Below are positions 22,895 to 61,144 of a DNA stretch of 64,000 bases, piece after piece; within the stretch, counting starts at the first letter, position 1, and the number at the start of each line of letters is the position of its first letter. This DNA is from a virus. The stretch is from positions 1 through 64,000 of IMG/VR virus record IMGVR_UViG_3300045131_002298; one strand, written 5' to 3'. The position numbers were made by a program, and so were the translations under genes. The notes under the pieces are model-generated. The model saw nothing but the letters and a program-made list of their open reading frames with translations, had not been told where the DNA came from and made no database searches.

Positions 22895-23958
22895 TTACTA
22901 CACCTTTTTCCACTATTATTTAATTTACCTACATGAAATATTCTATCTTCTGTCATATTATTTTCTATCCTATATGCTAGAGCCTTAGCAGATATACCCA
23001 ATGCTCTAGACCATGCTTCGCGTGTCATAGTAATGTCATTGTGTGTAAGTAATACACTATTTTGTTTATTTGAATTCTGCTCTTTTATTGTTACCCACCT
23101 ACAATTATCAGGAGAATAGCCGCTGTTATTATTAATACGATCTAAAGTTAAACTATCCTTATAGCCAGAAACAAACGCCCACTCAACAAAACACTCATTA
23201 TTATTAAGCCATGCATCACATACAACAATACCCCGTCCTCCGTAGTTTTTGTACCCAACGCTACTACTATTATAGCATCTCTTTATTACACTAGATAAAA
23301 TATCTAGTAATCTAGCTCTTCCTTTGCGCGGATTTTTACTCTTTTGGACCGGATTAAATATATCAGCATGAGACCACCCAGCATCATACCTATACTTAAT
23401 TGTATTGCTTTTTATTCCAGAAATATTAGACCACTCCGATAAAGTTTTTTCTTCCCCTCCTATTGTTAAAAATGTATTTCTACTTGTATTTCTATTTTGC
23501 TGAGTAGAAGAACTCCATCTACAATTTTTGGGGGAATAATCTCCTTTATTATTAATTCTATCTATAGTTAATTCATTAGTATAACCATTATCTGAAGCCC
23601 AATTATAAAATACAACAAAATCTTCAAGCCATTCTTTACATACCTTTATTCCGCTGCCACCATACTTAAGATAATTTACACTTTTACGATCGTAACACCT
23701 TCTAATCATCCCACTATATATTGAATAACGTCTAGTGTGTGCTAGACCGTGCTTAAAATTTCTAGCAGTAGTTAACTCTCTATTTAAACAACCACACGAT
23801 CTAGAAATTTCTTTTAATAAACTCTGTTTAGCTACATTCTTCTCGTTGCCACAGTCACATTTACAGCGGTAATAATGAGCAGATCCTCTGTTTTCTACAC
23901 GTTCTATTACAATCCATCTACCAAATCTCTGCCCTGTTAAATCAACAAATTTTCCCAT
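22891..23958 (-). CDS. HNH homing endonuclease with tandem duplicated nuclease domains
   Basis: Two YGG.GI..C..W...LT(I/L)DRINN..YSP.NCRW units. Confidence 0.9.
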   Translation of the reverse strand: MGKFVDLTGQRFGRWIVIERVENRGSAHYYRCKCDCGNEKNVAKQSLLKEISRSCGCLNRELTTARNFKHGLAHTRRYSIYSGMIRRCYDRKSVNYLKYGGSGIKVCKEWLEDFVVFYNWASDNGYTNELTIDRINNKGDYSPKNCRWSSSTQQNRNTSRNTFLTIGGEEKTLSEWSNISGIKSNTIKYRYDAGWSHADIFNPVQKSKNPRKGRARLLDILSSVIKRCYNSSSVGYKNYGGRGIVVCDAWLNNNECFVEWAFVSGYKDSLTLDRINNNSGYSPDNCRWVTIKEQNSNKQNSVLLTHNDITMTREAWSRALGISAKALAYRIENNMTEDRIFHVGKLNNSGKRCSK

Positions 23959-23983
23959 AATTATTGTCTCCTACAATATGTTG

Positions 23984-24062
23984 CTCCTGTGTTTTGTTTT
24001 AATTGCTGGCAGGCGGTTCAGGAGAATCCCCGCTTTCGAGTGGCCTACCCTAGCCAGCAATT
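23984..24062 (-). ncRNA. c4-like three-way-junction RNA leader upstream of an HNH gene
   Basis: P1 AATTGCTGGC/GCCAGCAATT, P2 GGGT-AGGCC-ACTC, P3 loop CTCCTG complementary to downstream CAGGAG (23984-23989). Confidence 0.6.
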
Positions 24063-24063
24063 T

Positions 24064-24079
24064 TTGCAATCAATTGCAA
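24064..24079 (+). repeat. 16-bp site, copy 2
   Basis: TTGCAATCAATTGCAA. Confidence 0.9.
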
Positions 24080-24165
24080 ATCATTCTATGTTTCCAGTAT
24101 AAACCTATTGTTCACTTTATGCAAGTATATTCGTGTTATTATCATATCTTTTGGGCGGCAAAAAT

Positions 24166-24181
24166 TTGCAATCAATTGCAA
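24166..24181 (+). repeat. 16-bp site, copy 3
   Basis: TTGCAATCAATTGCAA. Confidence 0.9.
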
Positions 24182-32034: not shown

Positions 32035-32997
32035 TTATTTTTTCTTAGGTCTATACTGTTCTGCCAAGGGTTCCGTCAATGCTCTTTCTACAGACCAATT
32101 TCTATTAAGTCTGCCCCTGATAGTTCCCTTATTAAAATTCAATTCTTCTGTCCACTGCGCTACACACTTAGTTTCACCGTTGAATGTAAGATATCTATTC
32201 CCTCTAGTATTTCTGCAATTCTCCTTACGAGTAACCCATCTACAATTCTCAGGGCTATAACCTCTTCCATTATCTATACGATCTATCTCTAATCCCTCTG
32301 GCCTTGGGCCCATGTCTTCTGCAAAATTAGCAAACGTGTGCCATCTTTCACATACTATTATGCCTCTTCCGCCATAATCTCGGTATCCTCCGTCATTTAC
32401 ATTATAGCATCTTTGCATCATATTATCCCATACTCCGTATATAGGAGTTCCTGTGAGCCCATGAGATATAGCCCAAGTCTTTCTATGACAGCCACACGAG
32501 ATAGTATTCCCAGTTAAAAGATTATTAGACTCCACAGAAGTTATCTTCCCACAATCGCATAAACATACCCACCTCACCCTCTTCTTCTTTGCTTTCTGGG
32601 GCGTTAAATCCTTCCCTAAAACTAGTAATCTACCGAAGCGCATACCTGTATAATCATCCCTATGACCACAAGTTTTTGAATCACCACACTTAAGAGAAGA
32701 AGCTCTAATTATCTTTTCTTTTCCACAATCGCACTTACAAAGCCACCAAGAACCAAAATCATCTACATGATCTAATTTTAAAACCTCTAATTCTCCAAAG
32801 TGTTTTCCTGCCAAATCGACTATACGCCCACAGCCACAAGAAGAAGTATTTCCACTTTTAAGGTTTTCTACTCTAACCTCGATCTCTTTACCACAATTAC
32901 ACACACATTTTACGTAAAATCTGTAAGATCCTTCTCTTTTATAAGTAGATCCTATTGTGGTTAGCTTTCCAAATTTTGTTCCTGATTCTATTTCCAA
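32035..32997 (-). CDS. HNH homing endonuclease
   Basis: Three CxCxCG Zn modules; YGGRGI; IDRIDNGRGYSPENCRW. Confidence 0.9.
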   Translation of the reverse strand: MEIESGTKFGKLTTIGSTYKREGSYRFYVKCVCNCGKEIEVRVENLKSGNTSSCGCGRIVDLAGKHFGELEVLKLDHVDDFGSWWLCKCDCGKEKIIRASSLKCGDSKTCGHRDDYTGMRFGRLLVLGKDLTPQKAKKKRVRWVCLCDCGKITSVESNNLLTGNTISCGCHRKTWAISHGLTGTPIYGVWDNMMQRCYNVNDGGYRDYGGRGIIVCERWHTFANFAEDMGPRPEGLEIDRIDNGRGYSPENCRWVTRKENCRNTRGNRYLTFNGETKCVAQWTEELNFNKGTIRGRLNRNWSVERALTEPLAEQYRPKKK

Positions 32998-33166: not shown

Positions 33167-33646
33167 TTACAGAGCACGTACATTCCTCTTGTTGTAAGCT
33201 ATCTCAACGAATTCTAAAACATCGGTACTGTCATCTAAAGATGACTTAGCATTTACCTTGTAAGATACTGGGAATCCCCGATAATATTCCCAGCAACGCA
33301 CTGGATCCCCTGCCGGTCCTAGTTCAAACACACTAAAATTCCTCTGGTACTTAGCGGGCATGCCACCGTTGCCTGTATCAGGGTTCTGCGCCGTATTCAA
33401 CCATTCCTCGAAATACAAACGTTGGTCAGACCCAATTGGTACTACCGTACGCATAACGCAGTTAGAGAAGCCGATCATTCCGACTTCCTTACATACGTGA
33501 TTCTGGCCCGCGCCACTATGAACGGTGACCCCATGCGTCCTTGTTCCAGGCTCAAACTCTTGTACAAGAGCTGCCTCGAGTCCATTAATTTCAACACGAT
33601 ATTTAAAATCTTTTAACCGCGGTATCGCACAAGCTGTCGTAGGCAT
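33167..33646 (-). CDS. Tail tube protein (T4 gp19-like)
   Basis: FKYRVEING, K..G...F, W.Y...FP..Y, E.VEIAY. Confidence 0.85.
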   Translation of the reverse strand: MPTTACAIPRLKDFKYRVEINGLEAALVQEFEPGTRTHGVTVHSGAGQNHVCKEVGMIGFSNCVMRTVVPIGSDQRLYFEEWLNTAQNPDTGNGGMPAKYQRNFSVFELGPAGDPVRCWEYYRGFPVSYKVNAKSSLDDSTDVLEFVEIAYNKRNVRAL

Positions 33647-33868: not shown

Positions 33869-33899
33869 AAAAAAAGAGCGCGGGTTTTAAGCGCGCTCT
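33869..33899 (-). terminator. Rho-independent terminator
   Basis: AGAGCGCG stem followed by a T run on the minus strand. Confidence 0.75.
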
Positions 33900-34222
33900 C
33901 CTCGACGACCAAGGATTTCCTTTTTGTTAAATGAAATATTTGCGAAATTTGGTCGTCTAAGTCGAATAAAGTGGCTATTGCTTTTATCCTAATTATTCAA
34001 AAGGATCTCAAAATGGATGATGAAGTATACGCAATAGCCAAACTGTTATATAAGAAATAAATTGGCTACTAGGTTTAACAATAAAAGCTCTTTAAAAGGA
34101 GGTAAAAAACAATAGTAGCCAAACTGCAATTTCAAATAAGGGGCGCTGGGTTAATAGTAGAAGGAGATTTTATGCTATAGAAGAATTAGTTGTGGGCGCG
34201 CCCTTTACCCCTTGACTAATTT
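33869..34222 (-). ncRNA. Putative multi-stem-loop antisense RNA array (~350 nt)
   Basis: No ORF in the track between a promoter (34229-34257) and a terminator; four stems enclosing 36-51-nt loops complementary to SD/ATG-like sequences. Confidence 0.6.
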
Positions 34223-34228
34223 AAACCT

Positions 34229-34257
34229 AGTCTACCACAGACTTTAACAAAAGTCAA
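34229..34257 (-). promoter_or_regulatory. sigma70 promoter with upstream 16-bp site
   Basis: TTGACT-N17-TAGACT, extended TG. Confidence 0.75.
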
Positions 34258-34264
34258 GCTTTTT

Positions 34265-34280
34265 TTGCAATTGATTGCAA
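34265..34280 (-). repeat. 16-bp site, copy 5 (7 bp upstream of a -35)
   Basis: TTGCAATTGATTGCAA on the + strand. Confidence 0.9.
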
Positions 34281-34728: not shown

Positions 34729-35121
34729 CTATTCCTTCATTTTTTTAATAGACGCTTCTAATCGCGTCATTGATATTTTAATATTATTTAATTCTGCTTC
34801 AATCATACTCAATTCCGACAGCTTTTGCTGAGAAAGGCTAGGATAGGGCTGAGAGGGCTGTGAGGAAGCCTGAACATTTGATGCCTGACTTGATGTCTGA
34901 TTTGGTACCTGTTGCTGTGGTTGATTCTGGGCCGGTTTTTGGGCCTGTGCATTATTTACTTGCTGTTGAAGATTATTTATTTGAGCAATCAACTGATTGC
35001 GCGCTGTAGGTCAAGTAGTATTCTGTAACTGATTTTGAAGAGCGCTCAACATGCTTTGATTTATATCCTGTTGCATGCTCTGTTGACTACTGTTTAAGCT
35101 GAAAAAATTAAAGAGTCCCAT
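34729..35121 (-). CDS. Gln-rich coiled-coil protein interrupted by an in-frame TGA (readthrough, pseudogene or sequence error)
   Basis: GGAGG RBS and ATG at 35121; codon 37 is TGA (35011-35013); continues in frame into ORF 34729-34992. Confidence 0.6.
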
Positions 35122-35160
35122 GGTTTCCTCCTGAGGGATTACACGTATTACTTTAATAGT

Positions 35161-35188
35161 ATTATACATTATATTTGCTGATTGTCAA
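35161..35188 (-). promoter_or_regulatory. sigma70 promoter
   Basis: TTGACA-N16-TATAAT. Confidence 0.65.
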
Positions 35189-35212
35189 GTTTTATTTTGA
35201 AGAAGAGTAAAG

Positions 35213-35288
35213 AAAAACAAAAGCCCGAAGGAGAACCCCTCGGGCATCGGGAAAGAAAGGAGAAAAAAATGAACCTTCTAGGGAAGGT
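35213..35288 (-). ncRNA. Putative ~75-nt anti-Shine-Dalgarno sRNA
   Basis: 5' hairpin ACCTTC/GAAGGT; single-stranded TCATTTTTTTCTCCTTTC; terminator GCCCGA..TCGGGC-TTTTGTTTTT. Confidence 0.65.
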
Positions 35289-35294
35289 GAATAC

Positions 35295-35323
35295 AGTATA
35301 CTTCCCTCTATAATACATGTCAA
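35295..35323 (-). promoter_or_regulatory. sigma70 promoter of the sRNA
   Basis: TTGACA-N17-TATACT. Confidence 0.75.
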
Positions 35324-35386
35324 GTAAAAAGATCAAAAGGTTGCATTTTTTTCTTGAAGTAACACTTGATAATTAGGTGCAATTAA

Positions 35387-35812
35387 TTACCAGTCTCCTC
35401 CCCCGAATAGCAGCGAGAGCACGTCGAAGGGAAAAACGCACACCCGCTGCACAGCAGAAACGCATATAGGAAGTTGACGCTGAGAAGTACTAACCCATGG
35501 ATATTGCTGCTGACAATAACTATAAGAGCAAGTATCATACATAGGCTGTGAATAATTCTGATAGTAATAAACCTGCTGGGGTCTATATGTTTTTCTTATT
35601 TGTTTTCTAGGCGCGAAATCTCGCTGCTGAGGAAGCCTGTTAACTGATACCTTCTTTTCAGGTTCCTGAGCGCGTCTAATCTTACTCTGATATGCTGAAT
35701 TATTAGGAAATTTAAAGGCAGGAAAATTCAAAGTTTCACCTTGAGGCTTCACCTGCGCGTATGAAAAGCCAGACATCATCAACACTACAAACAATACTAA
35801 AAACTTTTTCAT
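35387..35812 (-). CDS. Exported protein with signal peptide
   Basis: MKKFLVLFVVLMMSGFSYA-Q Sec signal; Q/Y-rich body. Confidence 0.65.
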   Translation of the reverse strand: MKKFLVLFVVLMMSGFSYAQVKPQGETLNFPAFKFPNNSAYQSKIRRAQEPEKKVSVNRLPQQRDFAPRKQIRKTYRPQQVYYYQNYSQPMYDTCSYSYCQQQYPWVSTSQRQLPICVSAVQRVCVFPFDVLSLLFGGGDW

Positions 35813-36444
35813 TCCATTACTCCTTCTTCCATTTTAACTTGGGGTGCCTTTTGAGGTAACGCACTCTCTCGTTCTCTAAGTAGAATCCATATAGCTTGTT
35901 CTAAATATGAAATATCCTCAAGATAATTATATTTAAAGAGCGCCTCCACTGCAGTCCCTACTCTATAATTAAGAAACCAATCCTCTATTACTTCTATAGG
36001 TTGAAATTCTACCTCATCATAAAAAACAGGGCCGTTAAGTTCATGGCGCGAAAAATTCCGCCCTTCTCCTTCACCAATATTCCCGTTAGTGAACTCATTC
36101 TGCATGTCATCTTTTGTAGGATCATAATCATCCATTTCTTTTTTGAGGCGCGAATTTATGCTCTTCTCCAATGACTCCTCTGTAGTATAATAAAGAAAGC
36201 GATGCACTCCGTCTTCCTCATAACAAAGCACATTATAATTAACAACTAGTTGAGGAGAAGTCTCTCCCTTTTTTGCGCCAATACCCGTGATACCAAAAAT
36301 GATAAGAGAATTTTCCTGAAACAAAGCCTTATTAATCCAATGCTCTAAAAGACGATCCTCTAAAATCTCCCTAACCAGTTTGGGATTTTTGTTGATAAGA
36401 GCGCTCTTTATATCAGTAGTCGGAATATTTTCTACAAGATCCAT
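35809..36444 (-). CDS. Hypothetical protein with degenerate DUF3310-like C-terminal domain
   Basis: GPVFY..QPIEVIEDWFLNYRVGTAVEALFKY..LEQAIWIL.RE. Confidence 0.55.
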   Translation of the reverse strand: MDLVENIPTTDIKSALINKNPKLVREILEDRLLEHWINKALFQENSLIIFGITGIGAKKGETSPQLVVNYNVLCYEEDGVHRFLYYTTEESLEKSINSRLKKEMDDYDPTKDDMQNEFTNGNIGEGEGRNFSRHELNGPVFYDEVEFQPIEVIEDWFLNYRVGTAVEALFKYNYLEDISYLEQAIWILLRERESALPQKAPQVKMEEGVME

Positions 36445-36557
36445 ATATCTCCCTTATAAAAAAAGTGCTGTTCTATTATTTGAAAAGGCGGAACAGCTAC
36501 ACCTTTTGACCCCGCGGGGGGATTGGGGCCAAGCTGCTTTGCGAGCAGCATGATTTT

Positions 36558-36586
36558 AATATACCACAAATTTAAAAGTATGTCAA
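36558..36586 (-). promoter_or_regulatory. sigma70 promoter with upstream 16-bp site
   Basis: TTGACA-N17-TATATT, extended TG. Confidence 0.75.
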
Positions 36587-38475
36587 GCTTTTTTTGCAAT
36601 TGATTGCAAATTAAATTTTCTACTTAAATGATCTACACGAATTTCTTTCTCTCCCCCGCTCTCTACATCGCATATAGCATAAATATTATTTTTCCTCTTA
36701 TAAATCTCCCTTACCTTAAAATCCCCAAATACATCCCCCACTTTACAAAATTTTGTGCCTGCTACTTCTAATGAATTATTCTTACTCATAGTATTGGCAA
36801 CTTCCTTTTTAATACAACCACAAGATTTAATTTTACCTGAAGTTACATCATATAATTTTTTAATATCCTCCTTTCCGCAGTCACATAAACATTTAGCATA
36901 TTTTCGCGCCCCTCCCTCAGTATTCTTTATTCTTACCTCCTTAATTATAAGCTTATTAAATTTTTCTCCTACATGCGTTGAATTTTCGTCAATAGGCCAA
37001 AATGGAAATTCCTTTTCTTTACTTTCTTTAACCTCTTTCAATCTCTCACTAGTAACAGTCATTCTATGCTCTTTAATAGATTCCTTATGATAACAACCAC
37101 AGGATTTAATTACATTAAGATGGGAAAGATTTATAGTGGTTTCATTTCCACAATCACAAGCACACCTCAGTCTATAAATATAATTACCTTTCTCTGTTTT
37201 ACCTTTTATAACTTCTAACACGGTAAGCCTATCAAACTTCTTCCCTACTATTCCTTTAATACTATATTTTTTTTCTGAACTTCCTTCAGTGGTTTCTACT
37301 TTTCCGCCTCTTCCACACCCACAAGATTTCTGACGATCATGAATCAAATCAGAAAGTAATATCTCTTTTTCTGTTACCCCACAATCACAGTCACAAATAG
37401 CATAGCTCCTATTCCCTCTGCCTCTATCTCTAGTAACAATATCTTTTATTATAACTTTCCCAAAACGCTCTCCTATATGCTTCTGATCCTCTCCTCTAAG
37501 ATTATTTCTTCCCGGTGAATACACCTCATCACTAAGAATCTGCTCTACACTCATACCGCTTATATATCTATTTTTCAACGTATCATAATTCTTACCTAAA
37601 AATTCTGCCCACTGCCCAATAGTAAGAGACTTTCCGTCATAAGTTAAAATAATATTCTTAATTGCTCCTGCATCCCTTCTTTCAACTAAAGGAGTAGTAA
37701 GAATATCTTCCGGAGACCATCCTGCGTCATACCTCCAAACTAAAGCTCTAGTTTCTATTCCAGTATACAAGGACCATTCTGGTATAGATCTAACCTCTCC
37801 TTTATACTCAACAGTAATATCCTTTAAATTGCGTTCAGTTTTTCTTTCTCTAGGAGGTGCTAATAACTCATTTCCTCTTTTATGCTCCGTATGATATCTA
37901 GTTTTTAAAGTAGATAATTTTATACCCTTTTCTTCTGCCCACGCTCTAAGGGTCTGATTTTTTCCTTCCCATTCGTAATAGATTATATTGTCCCTATTTT
38001 CGGATTGTTCCTCATGCGTAACCCACCTACAATTCTCTGGAGAGTAATCTCCGTCATTACTTATTCTATCTATCTCATAATCATTTTTAGGCTCTGGCTT
38101 TTCCCCCATATCTAATAAAAAGTTTTCGAATCCTCTTTCCTCCAGCCACCTATCACATACCTTTGTACCTTTTAGCCCATAAAAGGGATAGCCATCACTA
38201 TTAGGATTATAGCAGCGATCTTTAGCATGGTTCCAAGCATTATACTCAGAAGGAAAATTTCTACTAGTTACATTAGGGTCTACAGAATTACGCTTATTAC
38301 ATCCACAGGAAGTGGATCTTCCCTTTTTAACACTATATAATTCCATGTCTACCACAGCCCCGCACTCACACAAGCACCTACAAAATCTTCTCCTGCCCTG
38401 CTTGTCTGGTGTTTCCTTCTTAAAAACCTCAAGGATAGTAAGCTTTCCGAAAACCATTCCTACTAAATTTTCCAT
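36583..38475 (-). CDS. Large modular HNH endonuclease
   Basis: EIDRISNDGDYSPENCRW; three HTH-like repeats; at least four CxCxCG..SCGC modules. Confidence 0.85.
   Translation of the reverse strand: MENLVGMVFGKLTILEVFKKETPDKQGRRRFCRCLCECGAVVDMELYSVKKGRSTSCGCNKRNSVDPNVTSRNFPSEYNAWNHAKDRCYNPNSDGYPFYGLKGTKVCDRWLEERGFENFLLDMGEKPEPKNDYEIDRISNDGDYSPENCRWVTHEEQSENRDNIIYYEWEGKNQTLRAWAEEKGIKLSTLKTRYHTEHKRGNELLAPPRERKTERNLKDITVEYKGEVRSIPEWSLYTGIETRALVWRYDAGWSPEDILTTPLVERRDAGAIKNIILTYDGKSLTIGQWAEFLGKNYDTLKNRYISGMSVEQILSDEVYSPGRNNLRGEDQKHIGERFGKVIIKDIVTRDRGRGNRSYAICDCDCGVTEKEILLSDLIHDRQKSCGCGRGGKVETTEGSSEKKYSIKGIVGKKFDRLTVLEVIKGKTEKGNYIYRLRCACDCGNETTINLSHLNVIKSCGCYHKESIKEHRMTVTSERLKEVKESKEKEFPFWPIDENSTHVGEKFNKLIIKEVRIKNTEGGARKYAKCLCDCGKEDIKKLYDVTSGKIKSCGCIKKEVANTMSKNNSLEVAGTKFCKVGDVFGDFKVREIYKRKNNIYAICDVESGGEKEIRVDHLSRKFNLQSIAKKA
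36594..36609 (-). repeat. 16-bp site, copy 6 (7 bp upstream of a -35)
   Basis: TTGCAATTGATTGCAA on the + strand. Confidence 0.9.
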
Positions 38476-38741: not shown

Positions 38742-41336
38742 TTATGAGCGTACCCACCCTGGCAAGTACTTCATGCTTTTATAGTTCTCAAAAGACTCTC
38801 CCGTACGCATGACTCCAAGTTCGAATTCGAGATAGTATATAGCGCGGGTTGGTTGTATCAAAGCACGACACCTATAAAGGCCCCTATCTATATCCAAACC
38901 TGAATTCAAAACTGCGTTTTTTAGCTCGCCTCCGTCAAAAAAAGCGTCCCGGTCCGTTTGAAGGCAGTAGTCATAGATGGCATATTTGTTTTTCCATGAG
39001 TCGAATGCAGGTTCAAGTACCCTATGAATTTCTCTCCATGTAACTGGATGGTTAGGTTCAAATAGAAAGGTTCTTAGTACTGGCATAAGTGTTCTATTAA
39101 CAACCGTTATGAATCTCATAACGTTTAGTTCACGAGTAGCAGAAGGGGCTCTTTGTGTAGTCCTCTGCTCCCAGAACATAGCTCCCTCTATTCCAGGCAT
39201 CTTTGATATCATCAAATAATTAATGCCATACTCTGCAAAAAGATCTGCATAACCAGTTGATCTATAATCCTGGATATTAAAGTCAATTCCTTCTACCAGC
39301 TGAACAGCGCCTCTTCTTGGGCCTACTGGCGCATAATGTGAACCATAGTCATTATCAGTTCTACACAAGCAGGAAGCTAAATGTCCTAGATTAGGTATAT
39401 ATCGTTTAGCAGAATCCCTATCATCAAAGACAAGAGGGCGACCAAACCACAAGGAAAATCTATGTGAATTAAAAGCAGGATGTGTGTAATTACCAGTACC
39501 CATTCTCCAGGCTACTGTATCCTCAGGATCATTACCAGGAGGAGTTGCTCCATAACCCATCATATCGCCACGATTCTCGCAATAAGTAATCATTGCATTA
39601 TATACTGTTGCTGATACTGTGCCAGGAACCATAAGATCCATACTCATGTATGTAGTATCTGCAGCATAAATGCCAGTTTGCGCAGCGGCATCCCCAATCC
39701 AGTCAGCATCATCGAACCCATCATTTGCTAAATAAGTATCAGCTGTAAGCCCCAATACTGTATAAGCATCATGTGTAACTGCCTGTAAGTGAATGTTTTC
39801 TGTATCATCGTTTGCTTGTATTTTGAGTTTATTATTATAGGAAGTAGCTGTAGCATCTGACAAACTATCATTAATTTGTATAACAACTTCAGCTAGAGTT
39901 TTAGCTGCTCCTGAAAGAGTAATGGTTTGAGGGGCGTCGGCTCCAACCTGAATCAGTAACGTATCATCAGTACCGGTAACAAAGGTAAATGGCCCGAGTT
40001 CTGAGCCCACAAAATAACCACCCTCTTCATCAATACCATTAGAACCACCATGCAAATAATCACCAGTACCATTAGCAACTGGCATATTAAGAGGCGAAGC
40101 CGTGGCAGAATGAAGATCTACAACATCCACGAGAAAAGACTGCTCGGCAACAAAGTTTACAACATATCTTTCACTCTCTGAATCCATAGACATATCTGGA
40201 TAATATTCTTCCATATCACCTTGTCTATCATTTATAATTCTGAGATTAAAATAAAGATCTTCATGTAAGAGCGAATCGGTTATAATAACCTTAAGATCGT
40301 CTCCCCAATCACCTTCATTAAGAGCGTCAATTCTAAGGGTTGCCTGCGAAGAACCAGCAGCAGTCCCAGCTACCTCGTCTGTGTCAAAACCAAGAGGAGT
40401 AAGAGCGGTACTTGACGAGAACTGAAGAGTAGCGCTTGTACCAGAAGTTAAAGTTTCAATTCTTACTTTGCCTTCATTTGCATAGACATATACATCTTCG
40501 AAAGCCTGCATTCTTTGTACAACTTGGCCTGTAGTAAGAGTAAAGTCGCCTTCTTCTCCGGCTATAGGAGCAAGAGTTAATGATTGTGTAGCTTCTCCGT
40601 CAACAGAAAGAATAAGGTTATCTGTTCCGGCTTCTGCGGCATCGGTCGTAGTAGTAAGTGGGAGGCCCAAAAGTGCATAGGCTGAATCAGTTATAGTGAT
40701 TACACCTAAAGAGTGGGTTATTGTGTTGGCCCAAACTTTAAGAACATATGCGCCACTTCCTTCGTCATAAACAGCACTGGCAGTCATACCCGTAGTATGC
40801 GCATTTATATAATCAGCAACACCCTGCGTGGTAAGAGTTCCTGTGAGCGTTAACTCCTGAGCTGTTCCAGCATTTACAGTAAAAGAAAGTTTATCTGATT
40901 CGCCTGTAACAAAAGTAAAGGGGCCAACTTCTGTTCCCAGAAATCTACCCGAGAGCTTTTGGGTAAGAGCGAAAGGACCTACTTCACTCTCAATCACAGC
41001 CACCCCTGCAGTGTCTGCTCTATCATAAAGAGTCAATTGTGCTTTAGTTGCTGTTAATGTAGTAGGATCGGCAGGATCATCGTAATGTGCGGTTCTGATC
41101 AGATTCAGTCTTGCGCCTTGTCTAAGCGCCATTTCAACTACTAGTGGATCAGTTGTCCAAGATACTTTCTTACCGTATCTTTTCCTATACTCTTCCATGG
41201 TAGAGATAATACGGGCAACACCCATCTCACCTCTTTCTGCCTTGATGACCATGGTTACATACCCACGAACCACTTCATCAACAAATAACGATAAGTCATT
41301 TATCCGCCATATAACTCTAGCTGCGCCAAGCGTCAT
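38742..41336 (-). CDS. Contractile tail sheath protein
   Basis: APVGPRRG, ELNVMRF, FLFEPNHPVTWREI, IQPTRAIYYLEFE; GGAGG RBS favours ATG 41336. Confidence 0.92.
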   Translation of the reverse strand: MTLGAARVIWRINDLSLFVDEVVRGYVTMVIKAERGEMGVARIISTMEEYRKRYGKKVSWTTDPLVVEMALRQGARLNLIRTAHYDDPADPTTLTATKAQLTLYDRADTAGVAVIESEVGPFALTQKLSGRFLGTEVGPFTFVTGESDKLSFTVNAGTAQELTLTGTLTTQGVADYINAHTTGMTASAVYDEGSGAYVLKVWANTITHSLGVITITDSAYALLGLPLTTTTDAAEAGTDNLILSVDGEATQSLTLAPIAGEEGDFTLTTGQVVQRMQAFEDVYVYANEGKVRIETLTSGTSATLQFSSSTALTPLGFDTDEVAGTAAGSSQATLRIDALNEGDWGDDLKVIITDSLLHEDLYFNLRIINDRQGDMEEYYPDMSMDSESERYVVNFVAEQSFLVDVVDLHSATASPLNMPVANGTGDYLHGGSNGIDEEGGYFVGSELGPFTFVTGTDDTLLIQVGADAPQTITLSGAAKTLAEVVIQINDSLSDATATSYNNKLKIQANDDTENIHLQAVTHDAYTVLGLTADTYLANDGFDDADWIGDAAAQTGIYAADTTYMSMDLMVPGTVSATVYNAMITYCENRGDMMGYGATPPGNDPEDTVAWRMGTGNYTHPAFNSHRFSLWFGRPLVFDDRDSAKRYIPNLGHLASCLCRTDNDYGSHYAPVGPRRGAVQLVEGIDFNIQDYRSTGYADLFAEYGINYLMISKMPGIEGAMFWEQRTTQRAPSATRELNVMRFITVVNRTLMPVLRTFLFEPNHPVTWREIHRVLEPAFDSWKNKYAIYDYCLQTDRDAFFDGGELKNAVLNSGLDIDRGLYRCRALIQPTRAIYYLEFELGVMRTGESFENYKSMKYLPGWVRS

Positions 41337-41454
41337 ATCAGTAACCTCCAATATCAATTATAAATTTGGTCTAAGCCTCTAAAAAATTATTAATTAGTTT
41401 TTTAGTATTAGGAGCTTAGGTAAATGAAAACATTAATTTTTAAGACATAATAAA

Positions 41455-60294: not shown

Positions 60295-60355
60295 TAGAAA
60301 ATAAAAAACCACATCTAAACGTGGATGTATTAAACCGCAAAAAGGAGAAATAAAA

Positions 60356-61144
60356 ATGCCAAAGACTACATTGATTGAGAGAAGCAGTAATGAAGTATCT
60401 TCAATAATAGCTAATTCCGCTGCTATTAGACAGGAAACATTGCAGGCTAGAGATATGGTAGAAATAGGTTATATGAAACTAGCTAAATGTTTATATGATA
60501 TTTATACTCAAAACATTTACCAAACTTGGGATTTCCCTAATTTTGAAAACTACGTAGACTCAGAACTTCAGTTCAACTATCGTAAAGCTATGTATCTTGT
60601 GGAAATCTATAACAAAGCCCTCCTACTTAATATGGATATGGAAAGGCTGGAACGTATAGGATGGACTAAAGCTAAAGAATTAATTAGAGTAGTTGACCAG
60701 AATAACGCTGATGAGTGGATGGATGTGGCGGAGAAGTCTACAACTAAAGAACTTAATTTTAAAATTAAGACGGAGAAAGAATCTCAACTAGACCACACTT
60801 CTATAGTAGAGGAAGTCCCTACTGTAACAACTATTACTTTTAAACTAGGCATGGCTGAGAAAACACTAGTTAGTGAAGCACTGGAAGAGAGTGCACGGCT
60901 TATTAATTCTGATGATTTTGCTCTAGCTCTGGCTAATATCGCTTCTGAGTGGTTAGAAATGAAAGGAGTAGTTCCTCTACAGACAACACTAGAAGACCAT
61001 ATAGAGCATCTAGAACGTATCTACGGAAGGAAGTTGATAGTATCCGGGCCTATCATTGTTGAAGACGAGAACGACGAGGAGGACGATGAAGAACCCGTAA
61101 CTAAGAGTAAAGAAGATACCGATGAGTTTGAGGAACTTTTTTGA
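60356..61144 (+). CDS. Putative DNA-binding protein (DUF3102-like)
   Basis: LAKCLYDI...FENYVDSELQFNYRKAMYL...IGWTKA; strong RBS. Confidence 0.55.
   Translation: MPKTTLIERSSNEVSSIIANSAAIRQETLQARDMVEIGYMKLAKCLYDIYTQNIYQTWDFPNFENYVDSELQFNYRKAMYLVEIYNKALLLNMDMERLERIGWTKAKELIRVVDQNNADEWMDVAEKSTTKELNFKIKTEKESQLDHTSIVEEVPTVTTITFKLGMAEKTLVSEALEESARLINSDDFALALANIASEWLEMKGVVPLQTTLEDHIEHLERIYGRKLIVSGPIIVEDENDEEDDEEPVTKSKEDTDEFEELF

Follow-up and report, generated by a model that had tools for sequence, protein, structure and literature searches.

A probable small RNA with an exposed pyrimidine stretch, encoded between two tail genes of an uncultured lake-water phage

Results

A promoter-to-terminator unit on the minus strand

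A compact unit between two tail genes of an uncultured lake-water phage probably encodes a genuine small RNA that belongs to a known kind, and its function can be proposed from the sequence. The reading that we favour, tentatively and with slightly less than even confidence, is that of a minus-strand small-RNA gene, the ~75-nt product of which would act by pairing with Shine-Dalgarno (SD) sequences. The sigma-70 RNA polymerase of the host would start at about A35288 and stop at an intrinsic terminator, yielding an RNA of ~74-77 nt made up of a stem-loop, a single-stranded stretch with a U-run and CUCCUUUC, and the terminator hairpin with its U tail. The 5'-terminal stem-loop may protect the 5' end of the RNA, and the pyrimidine stretch would base-pair with purine-rich SD and start regions so that ribosome loading is blocked. 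The targets could be phage or host mRNAs reached in trans, with the translation-initiation region (TIR) of the gene at genome positions 83075-83713 as the best candidate from the phage; action in cis on transcripts that read through into the Q-rich gene downstream is another possibility.

The window that we analysed covers 64 kb from the start of one phage contig, which has a length of 102,741 bp and a G+C content of 38%. The phage is a virulent-type myophage, and the window contains no tRNA genes. All gene-like ORFs of at least 100 codons from 1 to 47.7 kb are located on the minus strand. The genes for the tail sheath and the tail tube flank an island of ~5 kb that includes an HNH endonuclease gene, several small genes without a family match and several sigma-70-type promoters. 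The unit lies within this island of sigma-70-driven units and is co-directional with all neighbouring genes, which favours the small-RNA reading. Upstream of it is an operon of two genes, encoding proteins of 211 and 141 amino acids, and downstream of it is a small Q-rich gene (Table 1).

Four elements had been proposed from the letters of this locus in an earlier analysis, hereafter the sequence-only reading: a near-consensus promoter, a 5' hairpin, an unpaired stretch and a G-C-rich terminator with a U tract. All four were confirmed on the minus strand at the positions listed in Table 1, and their joint presence speaks for a small RNA. From the -10 hexamer to the end of the terminator stem the unit measures 72 nt without an intervening ORF, and it is the sole unit in the 102.7-kb genome in which a strong promoter leads to a terminator without an ORF between them, which likewise favours the small-RNA reading. 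The terminator stem has 10 pairs (7 of them G-C) and a 3-nt loop according to a consensus scan; in the minimum-free-energy fold it has 9 pairs and a 5-nt loop. The intergenic stretch that precedes the promoter may, by inference only, hold an UP element or a regulator site; it is the same in the window and in one related lineage (lineage A, see below) and shows few changes in the other (lineage B).

Table 1. Features of the unit and of its surroundings. Positions are those of the window.
Feature	Position	Strand	Remarks
T4 gp18-like tail sheath gene	38742-41357	minus	
141-aa exported-protein gene	35387-35812	minus	upstream of the unit
Intergenic stretch, 141-aa gene stop to -35 hexamer	35324..35386	minus	A/T-rich; two loosely similar TGCA(N)CCT..ATC repeats
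Sigma-70-type promoter TTGACA-N17-TATACT	35323-35295 (TTGACA 35323-35318; TATACT 35300-35295)	minus	11/12 consensus positions
5' hairpin ACCUUC-CCUA-GAAGGU	35288-35273	minus	begins at predicted +1 (A35288, 7 nt after the -10 hexamer)
Unpaired stretch UCAUUUUUUUCUCCUUUCUUUCCCGAU, i.e. UCA-U7-CUCCUUUC-UUUCCCGAU	35272-35246	minus	27 nt; proposed seed/anti-SD
Intrinsic terminator hairpin GCCCGAGGGGTTCTCCTTCGGGC	35245-35223	minus	followed by U tract TTTTGTTTTT
Terminator including tail UUUUGUUUUU	35213..35245	minus	common to the unit and the upstream operon
77-nt segment with second promoter for the Q-rich gene	35142..35218 (TTGACA at 35188; TATAAT ending 35161)	minus	12/12 consensus positions
Q-rich gene TIR CAGGAGGAAACCAUG	35119..35135	minus	possible cis partner of the CU-rich stretch on read-through transcripts
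Small Q-rich gene	real start ATG at 35121	minus	downstream of the unit
Plus-strand micro-ORF MNLLGKVNTVYFPL	35269..35313	plus	14 codons; SD AAAGGAG upstream
360-nt hairpin-array RNA	33869-34257	minus	same island as the unit
gp19-like tail tube gene	33167-33646	minus	

The fold and its conservation in two related lineages

The predicted 77-nt RNA folds with -24.5 kcal/mol (z = -3.6), and none of 200 shuffled sequences folded as well. Relatives of the region were found by means of the tail-tube protein and the 141-aa protein. Lineage A consists of three IMG/VR contigs (L001, L002, L004 and overlapping loci) and lineage B of three lake metagenome contigs (L006-L008). The RNAs of lineages A and B fold alike (z = -4.8 and -5.3), and the CU-rich stretch between the hairpins is unpaired in the minimum-free-energy and centroid structures of all three lineages. 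Rfam searches returned nothing at gathering score over the whole window; at E <= 10 over positions 35150-35450 they gave five weak matches to other families, which we regard as noise, and C4 was not among them. The unit can therefore not be filed under C4 or any named sRNA family. Phage GenBank records gave no match in near mode and chance-level matches in distant mode.

The pattern of conservation is graded along the unit. Both promoter hexamers are invariant in the window and the two lineages while the spacer varies at 5 of its 17 positions, and the sequence from the -10 hexamer through the hairpin is invariant save for one C/T just before +1. UCA and CUCCUUUC are also invariant, and the linker immediately 3' of CUCCUUUC diverges completely. 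The terminator stems have three different sequences, all of which form perfect or near-perfect hairpins followed by U tracts. RNAalifold gave a consensus of 18 pairs, with 5 of the 12 terminator pairs changed on both sides, i.e. compensatory. The other six pairs belong to the 5' hairpin; as its sequence is the same in every lineage, this element offers no covariation and is uninformative on structure. The terminator contains G-U pairs that, like the U tract, function on the minus strand only, which assigns it to that strand. As judged from these alignments, the pattern fits the prediction for a promoter followed by a structured minus-strand RNA: invariant hexamers, hairpin and CUCCUUUC, a variable spacer, compensatory terminator pairs and an unpaired seed all favour the small-RNA reading. 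This reading is weakened by the fact that the unit is no more conserved than the adjacent coding sequence and by the lineages being no more than three in number and close to one another, all at least 82% identical (82-90% in the region). More distant homologues of the 141-aa protein do exist (P0003-P0007, 66-76% identity).

The same observations bear on the idea that the unit has no function of its own, being a chance promoter-like site beside tandem terminators of the 141-aa gene that appears conserved because the lineages are so close. The genome has 17 promoter sites that agree with the consensus at 11 or more of 12 positions, versus ~6.3 in block shuffles, so that about 6 of the 17 are expected by chance. 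Moreover, a terminator scan rated the 5' hairpin with the U-run that follows it (UCAUUUUUUU) as a weak terminator-like site, and conservation does not exceed that of the neighbouring gene. On the other hand, a chance site would hardly keep its hexamers while its spacer drifts, the start of the hairpin coincides exactly with the predicted +1, the UCA that separates the U-run from the stem makes a poor terminator, and CUCCUUUC is held constant while the sequence directly 3' of it is not. We give the chance-site explanation a slim probability.

A shared terminator and a possible leader

The sequence-only reading had described the unit as stand-alone. It does have a promoter and a terminator of its own, conserved in the three lineages. 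However, the terminator is at the same time the sole one downstream of the 211-aa/141-aa operon, with no other between the stop of the 141-aa gene and 35245, so that the RNA sequence is also the 3' end of this operon. Furthermore, the window and lineage B share the 77-nt segment with the second promoter, which lineage A does not have; there the SD and ATG of the Q-rich gene follow ~25 nt after the terminator without a promoter between. In lineage A the unit is thus the leader of the next gene.

These features suggest a different account, in which promoter and terminator are real and there is no trans-acting RNA. The terminator would close the 211-aa/141-aa operon, the promoter at 35323 would feed a short leader into the Q-rich gene, and the CU-rich stretch would mask the SD and AUG of that gene in cis, leaving good translation to transcripts from the second promoter (35188). 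Besides the layout of lineage A and the shared terminator, this account draws on RNA contigs (35247-35453 and 35164-35656) that lead from within the 141-aa gene over the promoter to the unit, and on folds of the read-through RNA in which CUCC pairs with the SD of the Q-rich gene with probabilities of 0.97, 0.64 and 0.99 in the three lineages. Another leader of the phage (23959-24181), with a CUCCUG loop upstream of CAGGAG, offers a parallel. Against it, the adjacent TIR is an average partner of the seed, its duplex ranking 40th, 77th and 42nd among 158 TIRs, which implies that any SD placed there would pair. An attenuator-type layout, with the terminator between promoter and gene and no intervening promoter, was found in lineage A only; in the window and lineage B a promoter with 12 of 12 consensus positions follows the terminator, which renders the upstream unit dispensable as a leader in two of the three lineages. 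No conserved antiterminator fold was detected that would make the terminator switchable. In folds of the nascent RNA, pairing of the terminator's 5' arm is weak and not consistent between lineages (partial in the window, almost nil in lineage B), which argues against a classical attenuator. Finally, a strong terminator right after a near-consensus promoter should yield mainly short RNA. Punctuation of the operon combined with a leader role is a serious competitor that we nonetheless rate as rather unlikely.

Lake metatranscriptome contigs

The region is held by four lake metatranscriptome runs, all from one study. Contigs at 35275-35656, 35247-35453 and 35164-35656 match the window exactly and connect the interior of the 141-aa gene, over the promoter, with the unit. 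This observation favours the small-RNA reading; its weight is lessened because the contigs are unstranded, stem from a single study and may reflect DNA carry-over. Other contigs start again at 35157 or 35130. In three of the four runs none of the listed contigs covers ~35158-35246, and one run bridges this gap; in run X4 the contigs on its two sides end at 35247 and 35157. The gap would fit transcription that ends near the hairpin and starts anew at the second promoter; we take it as a hint at most and do not count it as evidence. The higher depth of contigs over 35247-35656 was rejected as a measure of expression because the ends at 35627-35656 coincide with strain-variant contigs.

As a separate observation, one contig of run X12 has 24 T before 35396 on the plus strand, equivalent to an A24 tail on a minus-sense RNA that ends 9 nt short of the stop codon of the 141-aa gene. 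Such a tail may represent a polyadenylated decay intermediate or a library artefact.

The seed motif and its predicted partners

In many bacteria, the eight letters of CUCCUUUC also make up the 3' tail of the 16S rRNA. The sequence-only reading had pointed to the exact complementarity of the unpaired part to GGGAAAGAAAGGAGAAAAAAATGA, an SD with a start codon; this complement is simply the plus strand of the same locus, and hence no independent sign of a target. Nor is a fixed register of SD plus AUG conserved, as the U-run between CAU and CUCC is 7, 9 and 6 nt long in the three lineages. In IMG/VR, 99 of the 111 fetched occurrences of the motif GAAAGGAG-N0-4-AAAAAATGA begin an ORF of at least 50 codons, and the few cases with a short ORF were devoid of the promoter-hairpin-terminator architecture. 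The exact seed of the window was found nowhere else in IMG/VR. A degenerate version gave more than 109 matches, almost every one of which is the antisense of a usual gene start, and a second unit of this type was not among them. The antisense of any good TIR will therefore resemble an "anti-SD plus anti-AUG seed", and the generic nature of the motif weakens the small-RNA reading. What is unusual is the context of the motif, not the motif itself.

For the prediction of phage targets, 158 genes were called genome-wide with a crude caller, and their TIRs (-30 to +12) were scored against the seed of each lineage. The best TIR by duplex score is that of the plus-strand gene at genome positions 83075-83713, which ranked 1, 3 and 1 of 158 with the three seeds and thereby favours the small-RNA reading. 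The product of this gene, 212 aa long, has a signal peptide and features like those of an outer-membrane beta-barrel; the predicted duplex spans the SD and the AUG, with cofold ddG values of -22, -18 and -16 kcal/mol. Composition-preserving shuffles of the seed reached the best observed energy with P = 0.02, 0.07 and 0.18 in the three lineages, so that the match is marginally better than shuffles and at best suggestive. The small-RNA reading is weakened by these values, and also by the CCCG that strengthens this duplex, which is specific to the window and not conserved although the TIR of the gene is identical in lineage A. The seed energy correlates with plain SD strength (r = 0.68). No early-versus-late preference of the seed was seen when the TIRs of the plus-strand genes in the right arm were compared with those of the minus-strand structural genes in the left arm (p = 0.35), which again weakens this reading. 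Among the 158 TIRs, no robust phage mRNA target stands out. The 10-nt match at 60341, located before the ATG at 60356 and singled out by the sequence-only reading, is real: such matches occur three times in the window against 0.34 expected, one of them being the locus itself. The 60356 leader is outside the 15 best TIRs by summed rank.

The plus strand

The seed region can also be viewed from the other side. In this alternative the plus strand is the functional one: its SD and ATG (35269) express the micro-ORF listed in Table 1, or are the relic of a truncated plus-strand gene start, and the minus-strand RNA, if made, would be a cis-antisense RNA with a logic like that of type I toxin-antitoxin systems. 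That 89% of the occurrences of the same motif elsewhere are true gene starts gives this view some credit. So does the micro-ORF itself, the 14 residues of which are identical in all three lineages, and the SD-to-ATG spacing remains in a usable range. The two substitutions within it (GTG>GTA and CCT>CCG) are both synonymous, slightly favouring a coding role, yet they fall at positions that are also free under the promoter model, namely the spacer and the base between the -10 hexamer and +1. The ORF has 14 codons in the window and lineage A, and has lost its stop in lineage B, where it runs for 35 codons; the encoded peptide is short and has no membrane-like stretch. No conserved promoter precedes it, the sole candidate (9 of 12 positions, at 35138) lying in the segment that is missing from lineage A. 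In addition, no gene between 1 and 47.7 kb is on the plus strand, and the terminator, by virtue of its G-U pairs and U tract, is specific for that strand. The sequence-only reading had named expression of this ORF as the alternative to a minus-strand RNA; the loss of its stop codon weakens the case for it, the synonymous changes keep it alive, and altogether we find it improbable that the plus strand is the functional one.

The surrounding tail-gene island and other features of the phage

The island is a patchwork of indels. The HNH endonuclease genes at 36583-38475 and 32035-32997, both on the minus strand, are absent from lineage A, in which their flanks are colinear; lineage B retains the copy at 36583-38475. 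Both genes behave as mobile insertions in the tail-gene cluster. Lineage A has ~330 nt between the 211-aa and 141-aa genes (L001:7636-7968) that are absent from the window (35826-35861), and lineage B has ~357 nt extra at window positions 36610-36619.

The Q-rich region on the minus strand (34729-35121) contains two ORFs in the same frame, one of 36 codons (start at 35121) and one of 87 codons (TTG at 34992). One TGA (35013-35011) and six sense codons lie between them. None of the three lineages departs from the others in this TGA or in its context ACTACTTGACCTACAGCGCG, a pattern suggestive of programmed read-through of the stop codon, or of recoding, at that one site. TGA terminates 34 other genes, so that a genome-wide reassignment is excluded.

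Three promoters (34228-34280, 36557-36609 and genome ~69480) share a module in which the 16-bp palindrome TTGCAATCAATTGCAA precedes AAAAAGC and TTGAC. This palindrome is missing from the promoter of the small-RNA unit, where the invariant 63 nt upstream contain half-sites resembling TTGCAC and TGCAAC. Two copies of the palindrome also precede the minus-strand leader at 23959-24181, which lies before the gene starting at 23958. This leader has a large GCTGGC...GCCAGC hairpin containing AUUCUCCUGAA, then CAGGAG, and an AGGAG ribosome site in the loop of ATTGT/ACAAT. It is another instance of a CUCC motif upstream of a ribosome site in this phage.

The two clear signal peptides of the phage end in ...A|Q, namely SYA|QV in the 141-aa protein (35387-35812, minus strand) and ANA|QV in the product of the plus-strand gene at genome positions 83075-83713, and the Q after the cleavage site is invariant in seven homologues of the 141-aa protein. 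Such an ending follows the 'Q-rule' pattern of the Bacteroidota. To our knowledge, TTGACA/TATAAT promoters and strong SD sites are normally not used by Bacteroidota; the phage, with its Q-rule-like signal peptides, nevertheless uses both. Since it encodes an outer-membrane-like protein, its host is probably diderm. Scans of bacterial genomes with this protein and with the 141-aa alignment gave no match.

Discussion

In its proposed mode of action the unit comes closest to three known kinds of small RNA. The c4 antisense RNA of phages P1 and P7 pairs around a ribosome binding site to block translation (PMC12197685). Like c4 of the immI operon, the unit is specified by a phage, has a length of ~77 nt and lies just upstream of a gene that it potentially controls; in lineage A it stands immediately before the next gene, like c4. 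In c4 RNA the two pairing sites are placed in loops, and the RNA arises by processing of an operon transcript. In contrast, the pairing stretch of the unit lies between two hairpins, the unit has its own promoter and terminator, the Rfam C4 covariance model does not match it (E <= 10, 35150-35450), and its complementarity to the downstream TIR is generic (40th to 77th of 158).

The second kind, which matches the unit in layout, includes DapZ and MicL, sRNAs from 3' UTRs with an internal promoter of their own and a Rho-independent terminator. The unit shares with them a promoter at the end of an mRNA, a terminator common with that mRNA, a conserved single-stranded seed and a U-rich tail; its own promoter, its Rho-independent terminator and its conserved single-stranded seed are also the marks of a trans-encoded sRNA. 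It differs from the DapZ/MicL type in being phage-encoded and in that its seed is a generic polypyrimidine anti-SD stretch instead of a gene-specific sequence. The RsaE/RoxS and RNAIII-type RNAs of Bacillota are chromosomal and have several copies of UCCC motifs in hairpin loops. As in RsaE/RoxS, an unpaired pyrimidine motif of the unit could pair with the G-rich SD core, making many mRNAs addressable, but the unit has a single linear motif between hairpins and the phage host is probably diderm. A type I toxin-antitoxin pair is not indicated, as there is no hydrophobic opposite-strand peptide of conserved length with a promoter, and neither is a switchable attenuator, for which a conserved competing antiterminator fold was not found.

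The unit can also be compared with the hairpin-array RNA in the same island, which is on the same strand as the unit and, like it, has a sigma-70-type promoter and ends in a terminator. Loop 2 of the array reads UUUUUUACCUCCUUUU, compared to UUUUUUUCUCCUUUC in the unit. The array has several stretches of a U-run plus CCUCCUUU inside the loops of long hairpins, whereas the unit has one linear seed, and the array promoter has the module of the 16-bp palindrome and AAAAAGC that the promoter of the unit does not have. The array is itself unevenly conserved: the fraction of invariant columns across the three lineages is 0.02-0.2 in its middle (33990-34117), where almost nothing is shared, and 0.72-0.92 in its 5' part, and every column is invariant in the 3' end, which includes the terminator (33873-33952). 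From these alignments, the middle looks like a cassette replacement inside a fixed frame.

One further proposal, to which we attach a small probability, is that the unit and the array together form a battery of anti-TIR RNAs with which the phage would reprogram the translation of host or early phage genes, not silence one gene. Host-type promoters in the tail-gene cluster would then produce pyrimidine stretches that copy the anti-SD tail of 16S rRNA, and these RNAs would compete broadly with ribosomes for SD sites.

A role is known for few small RNAs of virulent phages, and a recent review tabulates 38 phage sRNAs without a described function (PMC12197685). The present unit would be easy to test in a surrogate host, being small and conserved and combining a well-defined promoter and a terminator with a presumably protected 5' end and an anti-SD stretch that is exposed. 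If it should turn out to be operon punctuation only, it would serve as a warning that the antisense of an ordinary TIR always resembles an "anti-SD seed". If, on the other hand, the predicted pairing with TIRs is true, an uncultured freshwater phage would tune translation by RNA rather than by protein, and the adjoining larger RNA with its similar pyrimidine stretches hints that this may be part of a wider strategy.
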